From NCBI GenBank assembly GCA_965660855.1, contig CBFIBM010000001.1, forward strand, positions 63,615 to 127,614: a stretch of 64,000 nucleotides of DNA, in the 5' to 3' direction. This document shows, piece after piece, positions 59,288 through 63,584 of this stretch. A program made the translations under genes and the position numbers. Positions within the stretch are counted from its first letter, which is position 1. The number at the start of each line of letters is the position of its first letter. The stretch comes from an uncultured bacterium (GTDB taxonomy: Bacteria; Fidelibacterota; Marinisomatia; Marinisomatales; UBA1611). The notes beneath the pieces were generated by a model. It saw nothing but the letters and a program-made list of their open reading frames with translations. It made no database searches and was not told the DNA's origin.

Positions 59288-60208
59288 TTACTTCAATAAA
59301 ATCATTTTTTTTGTTTGGCTAAAATCACCTGTATGAATTTTATACAAGTAAACACCTGCGGGCACTGGTAAACCTTGATTGTTTGTAGCATCCCACTGAA
59401 TTGAATTTGAACCATATTTTTGATTTTGACTTAGAAGCTTATTTACAGGATTACCTAAAATGTCGTAGATAATAATATTTACATAGGAATCTTCAGATAA
59501 ATCATACTTTATAGTAGTGATTGGATTAAATGGATTAGGATAATTTTCATGTAGATAATAATTGACGGGAAATGATGTGTTATGATCATTTTTTAAAGAA
59601 ATACAGATCTGCTGACATTCATCCATGGAAGTAAAAAAAGCGTCTGTGTAATCAATATTATTCACAACCCAATCACATCCTGATATGTATTCACAATTAT
59701 TATTTTTCCAACCAATGCCCAATGGCATATCACATAGACCAAAATTAACAAATGATAAGTCTGTACAACCGTTTTGTGTTTCACATATAATTAGATTTTC
59801 ATTTAAATAATAATCTGACCAACAACCTCCACAGTAATTTGGAATACATTGTGCGTCTAAATCTGAATGACAATAACTTGATAGACAAGGATTTGAAAAG
59901 CAATTAACAGGTGATTGACAATTAGAAGAAATTTTAATTTGAGTTATATTTACGGAGTTACACTCTGTACAAGATGTGGAATCTCCTTCAATTTCAACAA
60001 ATCTATTTATGAAATAAGAAAGATTAAATGAATCATTATCAGTAGAAATATAGCTTAAAAAATTCCCAAATTCATCTTCAAGTGAGTGAGACACACAATT
60101 TTCCTCCATGCAAACAGATGCATTTATAGCTCTAACATATCCATGAAAGGTAAAATCTTGACACCATATTAAAGCAGGAAAAATGATCGTTAGAATTAAT
60201 ACCAGCAT
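59288..60208 (-). CDS. Secreted Cys-rich protein with C-terminal T9SS type A / FlgD-Ig sorting domain
   Basis: Signal peptide; 19 Cys in the N-terminal ~205 aa; NYPNPFNP.TTI.Y...IYDILG...WDATN..G..VPAGVYLY...TKKMILLK tail. Confidence 0.85.
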   Translation of the reverse strand: MLVLILTIIFPALIWCQDFTFHGYVRAINASVCMEENCVSHSLEDEFGNFLSYISTDNDSFNLSYFINRFVEIEGDSTSCTECNSVNITQIKISSNCQSPVNCFSNPCLSSYCHSDLDAQCIPNYCGGCWSDYYLNENLIICETQNGCTDLSFVNFGLCDMPLGIGWKNNNCEYISGCDWVVNNIDYTDAFFTSMDECQQICISLKNDHNTSFPVNYYLHENYPNPFNPITTIKYDLSEDSYVNIIIYDILGNPVNKLLSQNQKYGSNSIQWDATNNQGLPVPAGVYLYKIHTGDFSQTKKMILLK

Positions 60209-60311
60209 GTCTAAGCATACAAAAATTTATTGTAGAATCGATATACCTATTTTCTTATATATAAAAGTAAAAAAAATAAAAATATATTATTATTTTTTTG
60301 TATTTTAAGAT

Positions 60312-61145
60312 ATGTTGTTAACTAAATACTTGACTAAAGTTCTTTTATTTTTTTCTCTATTGAGTTCACAATATTATGAAGTTGGTGACCAAGTTGAAAA
60401 TTTTGGAGCTTCTATATGCATGAATGGCAATGCTAACGACACTTGGAGTTTTGAGGAGCACGGAATAAATAAAGTTATATTTTTAAGTATTTTTGCAACT
60501 TGGTGAGGAGGATGTCAGGCGGAGGCTCCGCAATTAGAGGCAGTTAAACAACAATTTATAAACGAAGAAGTTATAATAATTACAGCAGGTAAAAGTTGGG
60601 GCCAACCATATACCTGCGAACAATGGGCAACAAATTTTGGATTAACTATACCCATTTTAGATGATGAAATTGATTCGCTATCAAGCTTATTTGGTAACTC
60701 AATTCCTCACAATGTAGTTATAGATGGTAATGGTCAAATAGTATACACATCTAATGGTCATAATCTTACAGGTATTATTAGTGTCATGGAAAATTCATTA
60801 AGTACTATTATCGAAGACTATGACGGCGATGGAATTTTGGATGATCAAGATAACTGCACTGAAATACAAAACCCGTCACAAAATGATACTGATTTAGATG
60901 GAATTGGAGATGCCTGTGATTTTTGTGATAATTTGAACATCTTTATCGATGGTAATATCTATGGAGAGATTGATAATCAAATGAATTATGACATTGATAT
61001 TTTTGACTTAATAACTTTACTTGATATTATTGCAAGTAATGATATTACTAATTGTGGTTATGAAATTGGAGATATTACAAATGATGGAAATGTAAATATC
61101 ATTGATGCAATTGCACTGCTTCAAAGAATTCTTAATCCAATTTAA
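60312..61145 (+). CDS. Putative selenoprotein: signal peptide + TlpA/AhpC-like thioredoxin fold (UxxC) + TSP3 repeats + dockerin-like domain, 277 aa
   Basis: Track ORFs 60312-60506 and 60786-61145 share a frame and are separated only by TGA 60504-60506 in FATW-U-GGCQAEAP; no other stop; IPHNVVIDGNG cis-Pro motif; SECIS-like hairpin downstream. Confidence 0.8.
60513..60542 (+). promoter_or_regulatory. Candidate bacterial SECIS element
   Basis: GCGGA-GGC-TCCGC hairpin (60519-60531) starting 12 nt after the UGA, G first in loop; possible lower stem UGUC/GGCA. Confidence 0.65.
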
Positions 61146-61259
61146 ATTTATCATTAGTTACTTAACCTGGTATGAAGTACAATAAATATTATATTTGATA
61201 AAAAATTCTAAGTACTAATTAAATATATTATTATGGTTTGTTTCTTAAAAAAAATGTAA

Positions 61260-63584
61260 ATGAATAATAAACCTCTGCTAACCTTATTTTTTATCTATTT
61301 GAGTTGTTCAACTCAAGAAAAGGACTATACACAGTATGTTAACCCTCTAATAGGGTCAGATTCATCTTTTTTATTATCTAACGGAAATACTTACCCAGCG
61401 ATTGCATTACCCTGGGGAATGAATTTTTGGACTCCTCAAACAGGGGAGATGGGAAATGGATGGATTTATACTGAAAAAAATTCTGGTTTAGTAGGAATAC
61501 GCCAGACTCATCAACCAAGCCCTTGGATAAATGATTATGGAGCTTTTTCTATTATGCCAATCAGAGGGGAATTAAGAGTCTTAGAAAATGATCGTAAATC
61601 GCAATATAAAAATATCAAGGTATTACCTCATTATTACAAAGTTGAATTGTTAGAATCCAAGACAATAGTAGAGCTAGCTCCAACTAAAAGGTCAGCACAT
61701 TTTAAAATACAATTTTCAGGTGAAGCTAAATCTCATATAATTATAGATGCTTTTTTTAAAGAATCGAAAATTAAAATAATACCAGAAGAAAACAAAGTTA
61801 TTGGTGTAGCAAAAAATAATTCGGGTGGTGTACCGAAAAATTTTGCAAATTATTTTATAATTGAATTTGACACACCTTTTAATGACTATGGAACATGGAA
61901 TGGTGATGCGGAAATATTTTCAAATAATGAACTTTCAGGATCTCATGTAGGAAGTTTTGTCAGTTTTTCAAATATTAAAAGTAATATTATTCAAGTTAGA
62001 ATATCTTCATCTTTTATTAGCCATGATCAGGCCCAAATTAATTTAGCTAGGGAGATACCTAAATCACAATCTTTTGAAAAAACAAAAGAACTTGCAAGAA
62101 TTTGCTGGAACAACGAGTTATCGAGGATAAAAATAAAACCTTCAAAAAAACAAAATATCTTGCATAATAAAGAATCTTCTAGTACGGTTGATAAATCTAA
62201 ATCAGACGTTATTAAATTTTACTCTAGTTTGTATAGAACACTTCTATTCCCAAGAGAATTTCATGAATATAATGCACAAGGCGACCAAATTCACTATAGC
62301 CCATATAATGGAAAAATTGAGAAGGGTCCACTGTACACGGACAATGGATTTTGGGATACTTTTAGAGCGGTATTTCCTTTTTATACATTATTGTATCCTG
62401 AAAAATTAGGTGGAATTCTACAAGGTATTATGGTTAATCCGTATAAAGAAAGTGGATGGTTACCTGAATGGTCAAGTCCAGGACATCGAGATTGCATGAT
62501 CGGATCAAATTCAGCTTCAATTATTTCAGAAGCATATCTCAAAGGGGTTTCTAATTTTGATATTGAAACTGCATATAAAGGAATAATAAACAGTTCTAAA
62601 AATGAAGGGCCATTAAGCTCTGTTGGTAGAAGAGGAGCAAAAGAGTATGACAGATTAGGTTTTATTCCTTATGATACTCAAATTAATGAAAGTGTTGCTA
62701 GGACCTTGGAATACTCTTATAACGATTACTGTATATGGAAATTAGCTGAGAAATTAGGAAAGCCAGATAACGAAATAAACTTATTCAAAAGTAGATCTTT
62801 TAATTACATGAATGTCTTTGATTCTACTACAAATTTTATGAGAGGTAGATCTTCACTTGGAGAGTTTGAAAGCCCTTTTAGACCAGATAAATGGGGAGGA
62901 GTTTTCACTGAGGGAAGTGCATGGCACTATACATGGTCTGTTCTACATGACCCACAAGGATTAATCAATTTGATGGGTGGTAAAAAGAATTTTATAAAAA
63001 AAATGGATATGATATTTACTTCTAAACCAACTTCAGATTATAGTTATTATGGCTTTAAAATTCATGAAATACTAGAAATGGAATTAGCAGGAATGGGTCA
63101 ATATGCACACGGAAATCAACCAATTCAGCATGCAATATACCTCTATAATTACGCTCAGCAGCCATGGAAAACACAAGAGAAAGTAAGATATGTTATGGAT
63201 AACTTATATGGTGCAGGGGCAGATGGATATTGTGGGGATGAAGATAACGGGCAAACGTCAGCATGGTTTGTTTTCTCATCTCTAGGCTTTTATCCAGTGG
63301 CACCTGTAACTGGTCAATATGTCATAGGTAGCCCACTATTTGAAGAGGTAACCATAGAGCTAAGCGATGGGAAAAAGTTGAAAATTAAGGCCCCAAATAA
63401 TAGTGAGAAAAATATTTATATAAAAAGCTTGAAGTTTAATAAGACTTTATCTAACCAGAGTTGGGTCGATCATAATGATTTAAAAAATGGAGGAATCATC
63501 GAATTTGATATGTCCAGTGTTCCCAATTTTCAATGGGGTTCAAGTGAAGACTCTACGCCATACTCAATGACAAAAAAAGAGTGA
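61260..63584 (+). CDS. GH92 alpha-mannosidase (probable lipoprotein)
   Basis: YVNPLIGS, GNTYPA..LPWGM, THQPSPWINDYG, GFWDTFRA, TEGSAWHY, HGNQP, GDEDNGQTSAW. Confidence 0.93.
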   Translation: MNNKPLLTLFFIYLSCSTQEKDYTQYVNPLIGSDSSFLLSNGNTYPAIALPWGMNFWTPQTGEMGNGWIYTEKNSGLVGIRQTHQPSPWINDYGAFSIMPIRGELRVLENDRKSQYKNIKVLPHYYKVELLESKTIVELAPTKRSAHFKIQFSGEAKSHIIIDAFFKESKIKIIPEENKVIGVAKNNSGGVPKNFANYFIIEFDTPFNDYGTWNGDAEIFSNNELSGSHVGSFVSFSNIKSNIIQVRISSSFISHDQAQINLAREIPKSQSFEKTKELARICWNNELSRIKIKPSKKQNILHNKESSSTVDKSKSDVIKFYSSLYRTLLFPREFHEYNAQGDQIHYSPYNGKIEKGPLYTDNGFWDTFRAVFPFYTLLYPEKLGGILQGIMVNPYKESGWLPEWSSPGHRDCMIGSNSASIISEAYLKGVSNFDIETAYKGIINSSKNEGPLSSVGRRGAKEYDRLGFIPYDTQINESVARTLEYSYNDYCIWKLAEKLGKPDNEINLFKSRSFNYMNVFDSTTNFMRGRSSLGEFESPFRPDKWGGVFTEGSAWHYTWSVLHDPQGLINLMGGKKNFIKKMDMIFTSKPTSDYSYYGFKIHEILEMELAGMGQYAHGNQPIQHAIYLYNYAQQPWKTQEKVRYVMDNLYGAGADGYCGDEDNGQTSAWFVFSSLGFYPVAPVTGQYVIGSPLFEEVTIELSDGKKLKIKAPNNSEKNIYIKSLKFNKTLSNQSWVDHNDLKNGGIIEFDMSSVPNFQWGSSEDSTPYSMTKKE

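Follow-up and report, generated by a model that had tools for sequence, protein, structure and literature searches.

An in-frame UGA codon points to a probably exported selenoprotein with a redoxin domain and a thrombospondin type 3-dockerin tail in an uncultured marine bacterium

The stretch of DNA analyzed here (the window) comprises 64,000 nucleotides of an uncultured bacterium (GTDB lineage Fidelibacterota; Marinisomatia; Marinisomatales; UBA1611; assembly GCA_965660855.1, contig CBFIBM010000001.1, positions 63,615 to 127,614 of the forward strand), the genome of which (G000) amounts to 2.09 Mb in 81 contigs, is 84% complete and has a GC content of 31.1%. Under translation table 11 the end of the window contains two open reading frames (ORFs) in the same frame, one at 60312–60506 (64 aa, ended by a TGA) and one at 60786–61145 (119 aa from its first ATG). 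When the TGA is read as selenocysteine (Sec, U), these become a single open frame of 277 codons, from the ATG at 60312 to the TAA at 61143–61145, with exactly one TGA (60504–60506), and the 93 codons of 60507–60785 contain no stop. An earlier interpretation made without database searches (the sequence-only reading) had joined the two ORFs in this way and had placed the TGA at the first cysteine position of a redox motif; our own reading of the frame agrees on both counts, as the TGA is preceded by a Trp codon and followed by GGA GGA TGT, which gives the protein context FLSIFATW-U-GGC-QAEAP. The protein strings quoted at that time (IPHNVVIDGNGQIVY, DYDGDGILDDQDNC...NPSQNDTDLDGIGDACD, DIDIFDL and GDITNDGNVNIIDAI) were also all found in the translation. 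The features we assign to the gene, which include a probable signal peptide, a thioredoxin-fold domain, a hairpin of the Sec insertion sequence (SECIS) type, and a tail composed of a thrombospondin type 3 (TSP3) repeat and a dockerin-fold module, are collected in Table 1.

Table 1. Coordinates, in window numbering, of the proposed selenoprotein gene and its parts, with the evidence for each.
Feature	Position	Strand	Basis or remarks
Whole selenoprotein gene	60312..61145	+	277 codons + TAA, one in-frame TGA; full-length one-TGA orthologs in 19 genomes
Probable Sec-type signal peptide, residues 1–20, MLLTKYLTKVLLFFSLLSSQ	60312..60371	+	Two Lys, then a hydrophobic run
Thioredoxin-fold domain of ResA/TlpA/CcmG (Redoxin) type, residues 24–158	60381..60785	+	Pfam, PDB profile search, Foldseek
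UGA selenocysteine codon (predicted), residue 65, first position of the W-U-G-G-C redox motif	60504..60506	+	Comparative
SECIS-type hairpin GCGGA-GGC-UCCGC, 5 bp stem, 3-nt loop	60519..60531	+	Conservation, covariation
One thrombospondin type 3 (calcium-binding) repeat, residues 169–206, with Cys182, Cys202 and Cys205 (CDFC)	60816..60929	+	Family profile
Dockerin-fold module, residues 207–277, two loop-helix segments, with Cys248	60930..61142	+	Fold search, weak sequence matches

A six-frame search for homologs in 41 genomes (G000 and 40 relatives) gave, by hand count, 45 matches that spanned residue 65 with E-values of 5.4e-17 or less, 39 of them with exactly one TGA and six with none. At the nucleotide level we aligned 22 TGA genes from 19 genomes, i.e., the window gene, two paralogs in the same genome and 19 genes from relatives, and all 22 had one in-frame TGA directly after TGG and no other stop, while identity to the window protein among the aligned homologs ranged from 66% down to 33%. 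A further locus on a contig of a metagenome-assembled genome (L040, 69% identity) likewise had its TGA straight after TGG, which brings the count to 23 of 23. All three Cys homologs (L031 and two adjacent genes at L035, a locus of the genome to which the window belongs) had TGT or TGC in the TGA column, and two Cys homologs from public collections (P0064 and P0086) read WCGYC and WCGPC at the aligned motif. Residues invariant in the alignment of 25 proteins were G25, C36, N38, W64, U/C65, C68, E71, A72, G93, Y100, C102, W105 and P132. The alternation of TGA with Cys among homologs, which the sequence-only reading had expected, was thus found, with the TGA kept down to ~33% identity, and this combination of conservation and Sec/Cys alternation is what classically marks a family of selenoproteins. 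A distant subfamily (27–34% identity, motif SATW-x-GPC, with the same kind of TSP3-dockerin tail) had TGA in three loci (L044, L046 and L048) and TGT or TGC in five (L041, L042, L043, L045 and L047).

Profile searches of the window's genome identified selA (422.9 bits, 457-aa frame), selB directly adjoining it (wing-3 domain, 68.2 bits, 629-aa frame), and selD (388.9 bits), the gene of which itself has one in-frame TGA. ARAGORN found a tRNA-Sec with the anticodon tca, which scored 63.3 bits with Rfam RF01852 (gathering score 47). All four exceed curated cut-offs, and the Sec machinery that a selenoprotein gene at this locus implied is therefore present. This stretch occurs in 20 public runs from 12 studies, four of which we compared: one independent DNA contig covers 60200–60644 with 0 differences, and metatranscriptome contigs from three libraries (60329–60627, 60329–60782 and 60328–60543) show no change at 60504–60506. 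The TGA is not an assembly error. Elsewhere in this genome TGA is an ordinary stop: stop-to-stop frames with 300 or more codons number 897, and they are terminated by TAA in 600 cases, by TAG in 149 and by TGA in 148; under table 11, frames of this length span 1.46 of the 2.09 Mb.

These data bear on two alternatives to Sec insertion. A nonsense mutation in an ordinary Cys redoxin gene, or a sequencing or assembly error, would agree with the two separate ORFs under table 11 and with public gene calls, which mostly hold only a fragment of 208–214 aa that starts past the TGA; it is refuted by the comparative data, in which the same TGA occurs in all 22 homologs of 19 genomes (33–66% identity) and at L040, the sequence 3' of the TGA remains open and conserved, and the same codon, rendered W, is carried by all nine close full-length database relatives retrieved, with the TGA intact in the independent DNA contig and the three RNA-library contigs as well. 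As the TGA column is conserved and alternates with Cys, we regard a nonsense mutation as excluded and give a pseudogene or error next to no credence. The same negligible weight goes to a reassigned code (code 4 or 25), under which residue 65 would be an ordinary Trp or Gly. Several public gene callers do render close relatives as ...FATWWGGCQ... under code 4, and the genome is AT-rich (31% GC); however, TGA ends 148 of its 897 long frames and table 11 frames cover most of the assembly at the extent given above, selA, selB and most homologs of other families are without any TGA, the TGA-free homologs have Cys rather than Trp or Gly in the TGA column, and the Sec system of the genome is complete. 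We consider it extremely likely that the gene encodes a genuine selenoprotein and that its TGA is a Sec codon.

The sequence-only reading had also drawn attention to a hairpin, GCGGA-GGC-TCCGC, starting 12 nt after the UGA, and the coordinates (60519–60531) agree, with 12 nt from the TGA to the stem and 17 nt from the TGA to the loop (60507–60523). Its core 9-mer GGAGGCTCC (columns 27–35 of a 72-column DNA alignment) was invariant in 22/22 TGA genes and starts 17 nt past the TGA's first base; the 17 nt between TGA and loop are likewise identical in all 22. Pair 26–36, formed in the window gene by C60520 and G60530, was C-G in 17 of these genes, U-A in five and broken in none, while pair 25–37 was G-C in seven, U-A in six, G-U in two and unpaired in seven; column 36 is the third base of a Pro codon (CCG/CCA) and tracks the second base of the codon three upstream (xCG or GTG). 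Under an 11-pair model 81.8% of the cells were paired, compared with 30–45% when the 3' partners were slid by 1–3 columns, and the covariation score was reached by 0/500 shuffles, a control that overstates significance because the 22 sequences are related. Since related sequences can beat shuffles without any structure, we give more weight to the slid controls and to the clean 17:5:0 pair, by which the conservation and covariation looked for in the hairpin are borne out.

Two further controls came from the codons themselves. None of the three Cys homologs has the hairpin, and they spell E-A(-P) as GAT GAA GCC CCA, ACT GAA GCT ACA and ACT GAA GCG TTC. The codons of the hairpin are rare in the genome's long frames, where Glu is spelled GAG in 23.4% of cases, Ala GCG in 7.7% and Pro CCG in 6.7%, and the remark that GCG, GAG and CCG are atypical here was therefore correct. 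Together the Cys-form codons and the rare codons speak for selection that acts on the RNA and not on the protein, and it is on synonymous sites and on the covarying pair that the argument for the hairpin rests. The core 9-mer occurs in six copies in the 2.09 Mb, and three of these lie 17 nt past the in-frame TGA of the three Sec paralogs. By the consensus model of bacterial SECIS (bSECIS) elements, as given in the legend to Fig. 2 of a 2026 review, PMC13188914 (an apical loop of 3–9 nt, an upper stem of 4–16 bp, a G at loop position 1 or 2 with G or U as the usual next base, a spacing of 16–37 nt, and a minimum free energy of −7.5 kcal/mol or less), the 3-nt loop GGC with its initial GG, the 5 bp stem and the spacing of 17 nt all lie within the stated ranges. 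The gene for an Omp28-related selenoprotein in the same genome has a hairpin of similar size, UGCGA-GUU-UCGCA (5 bp, 3-nt loop), at a nearly equal distance. The TGA forms of the distant subfamily have a different small hairpin, CAUCG-GUU/GUC-CGAUG, at the same distance from the TGA. As both of these have similar hairpins, very small SECIS elements are seemingly the rule in these organisms.

The domain containing the Sec codon (residues 24–158) matched the Pfam families Redoxin (PF08534, 42.2 bits, cut-off 26.6) and AhpC-TSA (PF00578, 42.6 bits, E-value 7e-11, cut-off 26), the latter being nominally the best Pfam match. A PDB profile search with the family profile identified ResA (4nmu, 1e-13), and also DsbE, DipZ and PDI. 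When an AlphaFold2 model built from a 25-sequence alignment (mean pLDDT 85) was compared with known structures by Foldseek, the best matches were ResA, CcmG, thioredoxin-family proteins of Geobacter and Chlorobium, pneumococcal Etrx and mycobacterial DsbE/F, with E-values of 7e-11 to 6e-8 and target TM scores of 0.7–0.85 (e.g., 7e-11 for 4nmu, and a target TM of 0.84 with an rmsd of 2.0 for 1su9). The thioredoxin-like fold proposed from the sequence is thus upheld, and by Pfam, PDB profile and Foldseek alike it is of the ResA/TlpA type. The pattern W-C-x-x-C-x-x-E-x-P is one that we take to be TlpA/ResA-like, i.e., that of a thiol-disulfide oxidoreductase. ResA, TlpA and CcmG (DsbE; cd02966 "TlpA-like"), which are the best matches of the window protein in both sequence and structure, share with it a thioredoxin fold with a central insertion, a W-C-x-x-C center followed by a conserved Glu and Pro, and an extracytoplasmic location, which for the window protein is predicted. 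The window protein differs from them in having Sec for the first Cys, a cleavable-looking signal peptide rather than a membrane anchor, two extra Cys that are invariant in the alignment (C36 and C102), and the TSP3-dockerin tail; moreover, no cytochrome c maturation genes or other redox genes adjoin the window gene.

By analogy with these enzymes we read the window protein as a probable exported thiol-disulfide oxidoreductase of the ResA/TlpA/CcmG type, with Sec in place of the nucleophilic N-terminal Cys of WCxxC, and presumably acting in the reducing direction. In this scheme the hairpin would bind SelB-GTP-Sec-tRNA(Sec) as the ribosome reaches the UGA at 60504–60506, and Sec would be inserted at residue 65. 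After export the U-x-x-C pair would cycle between the selenol/thiol and the selenenylsulfide, with Sec65 as the exposed nucleophile on a substrate disulfide and Cys68 resolving the mixed selenenylsulfide. Attack by Sec on disulfides would be faster, and would take place at lower pH, than in a Cys enzyme, and the oxidized enzyme could be re-reduced by DsbD if it is periplasmic.

The sequence-only reading had described TSP3 repeats and a dockerin-like pair after the redox domain, and both kinds of module were found, the former as one repeat. For residues 169–206 the family profile matched the TSP3 repeats of COMP (3fby, 7e-33) and thrombospondin-2 (9e-32) in full-repeat alignments, and the tail contains the pattern DxDxDGxxDxxDNC...NPxQxDxDxDGxGDxCD; a difference from thrombospondin and COMP is that the window protein has a single repeat and not a wire of many. 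In a PDB sequence search with the dockerin part, 10 of 12 weak matches were to cellulosomal dockerins (best E-value 0.017). A separate model of the tail had pLDDT values of 85–94 in the dockerin part and 53–65 in the TSP3 part, and when it was submitted to Foldseek ranks 1–37 were all dockerins, with a probability of ~1.0 and target TM scores of 0.6–0.77. Like the type I dockerins of cellulosomes (PF00404), the module has a three-helix, two-loop fold, and its second segment, GDITNDGNVNIIDAIALLQRIL, fits the dockerin repeat; unlike them, it has a long and divergent first loop and an extra pair of Cys capable of forming a disulfide, and it is attached to a redox enzyme in a Gram-negative organism with a type IX secretion system (T9SS) rather than to a glycoside hydrolase in a Firmicute. 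The tail Cys at positions 182, 202, 205 and 248 are conserved, three of them invariantly, and two form C-D-x-C. Judging from the models, the TSP3 repeat and the dockerin, tied together by these four Cys, may form a calcium-dependent attachment module, with both calcium binding and docking as predicted properties. In the window's genome, at least six secreted proteins terminate in this module, among them the Omp28-related selenoprotein.

The N-terminus, with a helix at residues 3–17 in the AlphaFold2 model, is of the same kind in all 25 aligned homologs, and residues 1–20 are a probable signal peptide. The alignment contains three forms of the protein: redoxin-TSP3-dockerin alone (271–319 aa), to which the window protein belongs; the same followed by a domain of ~120 aa and a T9SS C-terminal sorting domain (487–527 aa); and redoxin followed directly by the sorting domain (276–280 aa). 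Por_Secre_tail (PF18962) was identified by Pfam in L018 and L032, which represent one T9SS form each (36.1 and 31 bits), and by hand count of YPNPFN...K tails the sorting domain is present in 15 of the 25 homologs. The genome encodes the T9SS translocon SprA and a DsbD-type membrane reductase (DsbD_TM, 79.2 bits). Based on the N-terminal sequence and on the sorting domains of the orthologs, export of the window protein appears likely; since the tail of most orthologs is extended by the ~120-aa domain plus a T9SS sorting domain, the family overall seems aimed at the cell surface, and the short form of the window would be either periplasmic, with a DsbD-type supply of reductant, or held on another protein via its dockerin. 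The ~120-aa domain of the long orthologs (e.g., L018:2347–2709), located between dockerin and sorting domain, is conserved and contains the motif ...ISGFQF...; it had no Pfam match, only chance-level matches in a PDB profile search (E-values of 0.08–1.9), and no match in a single-sequence search of the window's genome.

Several observations weigh against the reading of this gene as that of an exported selenoenzyme with an attachment tail. The Sec codon is known here at the level of the genes, and the contigs from RNA libraries served solely to confirm the base and are not proof of transcription; all three of them, moreover, start downstream of the proposed ATG at 60312. Regarding the hairpin, part of the conservation of its core is at the level of the protein, because the core encodes the conserved E-A-P. 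A 73-nt segment folded with a z of +0.87, and 161 of 200 shuffles folded at least as well. The energy of the hairpin is −7.0 kcal/mol for the 29-nt core and −7.4 kcal/mol for the 39 nt from the UGA, against the limit of −7.5 kcal/mol in the bSECIS model as its legend states it, and that limit is reached by just 10 of the 22 cores in the family. An Rfam scan of 60400–60700 at E-values of 10 or less gave no family match beyond a chance match to a long non-coding RNA. As the fold by itself is unremarkable, the hairpin takes its significance from the comparative data and not from its energy. Regarding the tail and its location, the single-sequence scores for Pfam TSP_3 (PF02412, 22.4 bits, cut-off 25) and Dockerin_1 (PF00404, 15.8 bits, cut-off 22.9) are below their cut-offs, the E-values of the Foldseek dockerin matches are weak (0.03 and above), and the window protein ends after the dockerin, without a T9SS sorting domain. 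A search of the genome for cohesins, the partners which the sequence-only reading had proposed to look for, did yield a cohesin-type Pfam match, a single weak one of 22.2 bits (25.1 bits with neighbors), and established no partner.

The function of the enzyme and that of the tail could each be read differently. A peroxiredoxin-like peroxidase, in which Sec would be the peroxidatic and Cys68 the resolving residue and which would detoxify peroxide at the cell envelope, is suggested by the nominal first rank of AhpC-TSA in Pfam, by the name "Prx-like" given to marine UxxC proteins in Table 2 of PMC2398784 and Table 1 of PMC13188914, and by the suitability of Sec for peroxide reduction as described in PMC13188914; yet the PxxxTxxC/U signature given in the latter is absent, with S-I-F-A-T-W before U65, no Pro, and Thr at −2, and all top matches in sequence (ResA, DsbE, DipZ and PDI) as well as in fold are thiol-disulfide oxidoreductases. 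We consider a peroxidase improbable, and keep to a thiol-disulfide oxidoreductase. A more serious contender concerns the tail, which instead of a cohesin-binding dockerin may be a calcium-stabilized spacer or a module that binds matrix or glycans. The lone weak cohesin-type match would be in keeping with this, as would the divergent first dockerin segment with its low Pfam score and the ~120-aa domain of the long orthologs, for which neither the PDB profile search nor hhalign gave a cohesin match (against the genome's cohesin-like domain, the E-value was 0.055 and the probability ~1%, which is not significant). Dockerin-like modules are common outside cellulosomes, and for most of these no partner is known, which also counts in favor of a spacer. 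On the other hand, dockerins alone occupy ranks 1–37 of the fold search, and the module recurs as the final domain in several secreted proteins that are not related to one another, a behavior typical of attachment modules. We put the chances of a spacer or matrix-binding module at roughly one in three, and retain the attachment module as our reading of the tail.

The cohesin-type match lies at G000:C2:68962–69288 (locus L058) in a T9SS cargo protein of 1281 aa, in which a dockerin-like segment is directly followed by the cohesin-type match and a sorting domain is also present, making it a candidate docking platform. A complex prediction of the dockerin part (alignment residues 44–112) with the cohesin-like domain (L058:1441–1860) scored 0.30, against a mark of 0.32, a value that counts neither for nor against binding, and when the cohesin-like domain was used as a query against its own genome it matched only itself. 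Taking all parts together, i.e., a selenoprotein that is exported, has reductase chemistry and carries a tail with a role in attachment, we believe the whole statement to be probably correct, with good though not overwhelming confidence.

The family is narrow. Of 24 genomes sampled from the taxonomic family of the window's organism 23 have it, while in a phylum-wide sample 7 of 151 genomes had matches at E-values of 1e-28 or less, and the only one outside the order was without a TGA; the tail is unusual and probably lineage-specific. The window gene stands alone, on the same contig as, and ~135 kb from, a cluster of paralogs (G000:C1:258113–271900) composed of the Omp28-related selenoprotein, two Sec paralogs (TGAs at C1:261992 and C1:269226) and two Cys paralogs, all of which share the TSP3-dockerin tail. 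None of the NCBIfam models claims the window protein. One related model is NF045500, "Omp28-related selenoprotein", positions 258–377 of which match residues 153–275 of the window protein (1e-29): it has the same C-terminal TSP3-dockerin module, is likewise a UxxC selenoprotein with a signal peptide, and occurs in the same genomes as the window family, often adjoining its members, with an NF045500 gene immediately upstream of the window-gene ortholog in one relative. However, its N-terminal domain is Omp28-like and not Redoxin, and with 103.9 bits against a cut-off of 200 the window protein is not a member, whereas the genome's true member scores 556 bits and has one TGA and a U-P-Y-C motif. 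NF041054, "ResA-like WAxxUGC motif-containing protein", also describes a ResA-like selenoprotein, but its Sec is in WAxxUGC as opposed to W-U-G-G-C, and at 29.9 bits (cut-off 300) the window protein is not a member of this family either.

A crude scan of the genome for redox motifs with an in-frame TGA and a frame open to either side gave 118 raw matches, mostly noise. The candidates among these were three further thioredoxin-like genes with W-U-x-x-C, one gene with Y-U-G-T-C and two of the peroxiredoxin type with P-x-x-x-T-P-G-U, with sites at G000 C1:180529(−), C1:179393(−), C5:43173(−), C1:355800(+), C6:59769(−) and C17:11572(+). This suggests about ten thioredoxin-fold selenoproteins in a 2-Mb genome, where the candidates from the crude scan would be putative.

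Selenoenzymes of this general type have been reported from the sea before. Table 2 of the Global Ocean Sampling study (PMC2398784) includes "Prx-like 3" (pfam08534, UxxC, 68 sequences, marine-enriched), and the same source describes a fused domain, "Unknown_3", with three conserved Cys including a CxxC, for which a redox role was suggested. The marine origin, Redoxin-type domain and UxxC motif resemble those of the window family at the level of description, and the two may be the same; similarly, the Cys attributed to Unknown_3 fit Cys182, Cys202-x-x-Cys205 and Cys248 of the window tail when compared by description only, and, unlike what that description gives for Unknown_3, the window tail can be assigned to a TSP3 repeat followed by a dockerin fold. 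UxxC proteins named "Prx-like", "Trx-like" and "thiol-disulfide isomerase-like (cd02966)" are standard entries in the catalogs of PMC13188914 (Table 1) and PMC5029168. UxxC redoxin-type marine selenoproteins have been catalogued since 2005–2008; the enzyme type is known and the tail is what is unusual. The architecture, which the sequence-only reading did not know as characterized, is consequently probably not wholly unrecorded, given the Prx-like 3 description in that table and the identical tail of NF045500. A full-text search of the literature found no description of a dockerin-tailed selenoprotein or of such selenoenzymes in Marinimicrobia/SAR406.

The prediction that standard annotation would split the gene proved accurate, since public gene calls either split or misread it. 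Public protein collections held 155 proteins with E-values of 1e-10 or less, and the 12 that were retrieved comprised nine full-length proteins with W at the Sec column, one fragment of 208 aa and two Cys homologs, one of which has the NCBI name "redoxin domain-containing protein". The full-length relatives with Trp at the Sec position (P0002–P0025) came from short contigs on which the gene caller had used a code with TGA as Trp. The fragments of 208–214 aa start just past the TGA, some apparently at a GTG within the hairpin, and most public relatives are nameless or are called "hypothetical protein".

Around the gene, a divergently oriented Cys-rich secreted T9SS cargo protein (Por_Secre_tail, 37.6 bits) is encoded at 59288–60208 on the reverse strand, and a protein of the GH92 alpha-mannosidase family (541 bits) at 61260–63584 on the forward strand. 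A scan of 60150–61300 for promoters and terminators gave promoter sites no more frequent than in shuffles, and no terminator. The contigs from the three metatranscriptome libraries, which come from three studies, all start at 60328/60329, 17 nt downstream of the ATG at 60312; in one of them an Illumina adapter lies directly before this start, and the DNA contig continues upstream. An in-frame TTG is found at 60330. These contigs hint weakly at an RNA 5' end near 60328–60330, which might go with a leaderless start or with a signal peptide of reduced length.

The window gene is a new and mis-annotated member of the UxxC thioredoxin-fold selenoproteins of marine bacteria, and a clear case of a selenoprotein mishandled by annotation pipelines. 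Its 13-nt SECIS with one cleanly covarying pair offers a convenient natural test case for minimal recognition by SelB. Within one family of marine Neomarinimicrobiota, genes of the window family occur in multi-copy clusters together with their Cys paralogs and those for Omp28-related selenoproteins, and based on these clusters and on the roughly ten candidates in a single genome, the use of selenium may be a substantial and under-annotated trait of an abundant ocean lineage. The TSP3-dockerin tail and the T9SS domains of the orthologs point to selenium redox chemistry at the outer membrane or outside it. We further speculate, as a long shot, that this family presents its extracytoplasmic selenoenzymes as a set, on a common calcium-dependent TSP3-dockerin handle shared by Sec-redoxins, Omp28-related selenoproteins and Cys paralogs, in which the long forms would be fixed at the surface by the T9SS and the short forms docked on surface proteins, perhaps being carried out together with them. 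If this were true, it would amount to an extracellular "redox cellulosome" that brings selenium chemistry to bear on material in sea water which is rich in disulfides or contains sulfur.

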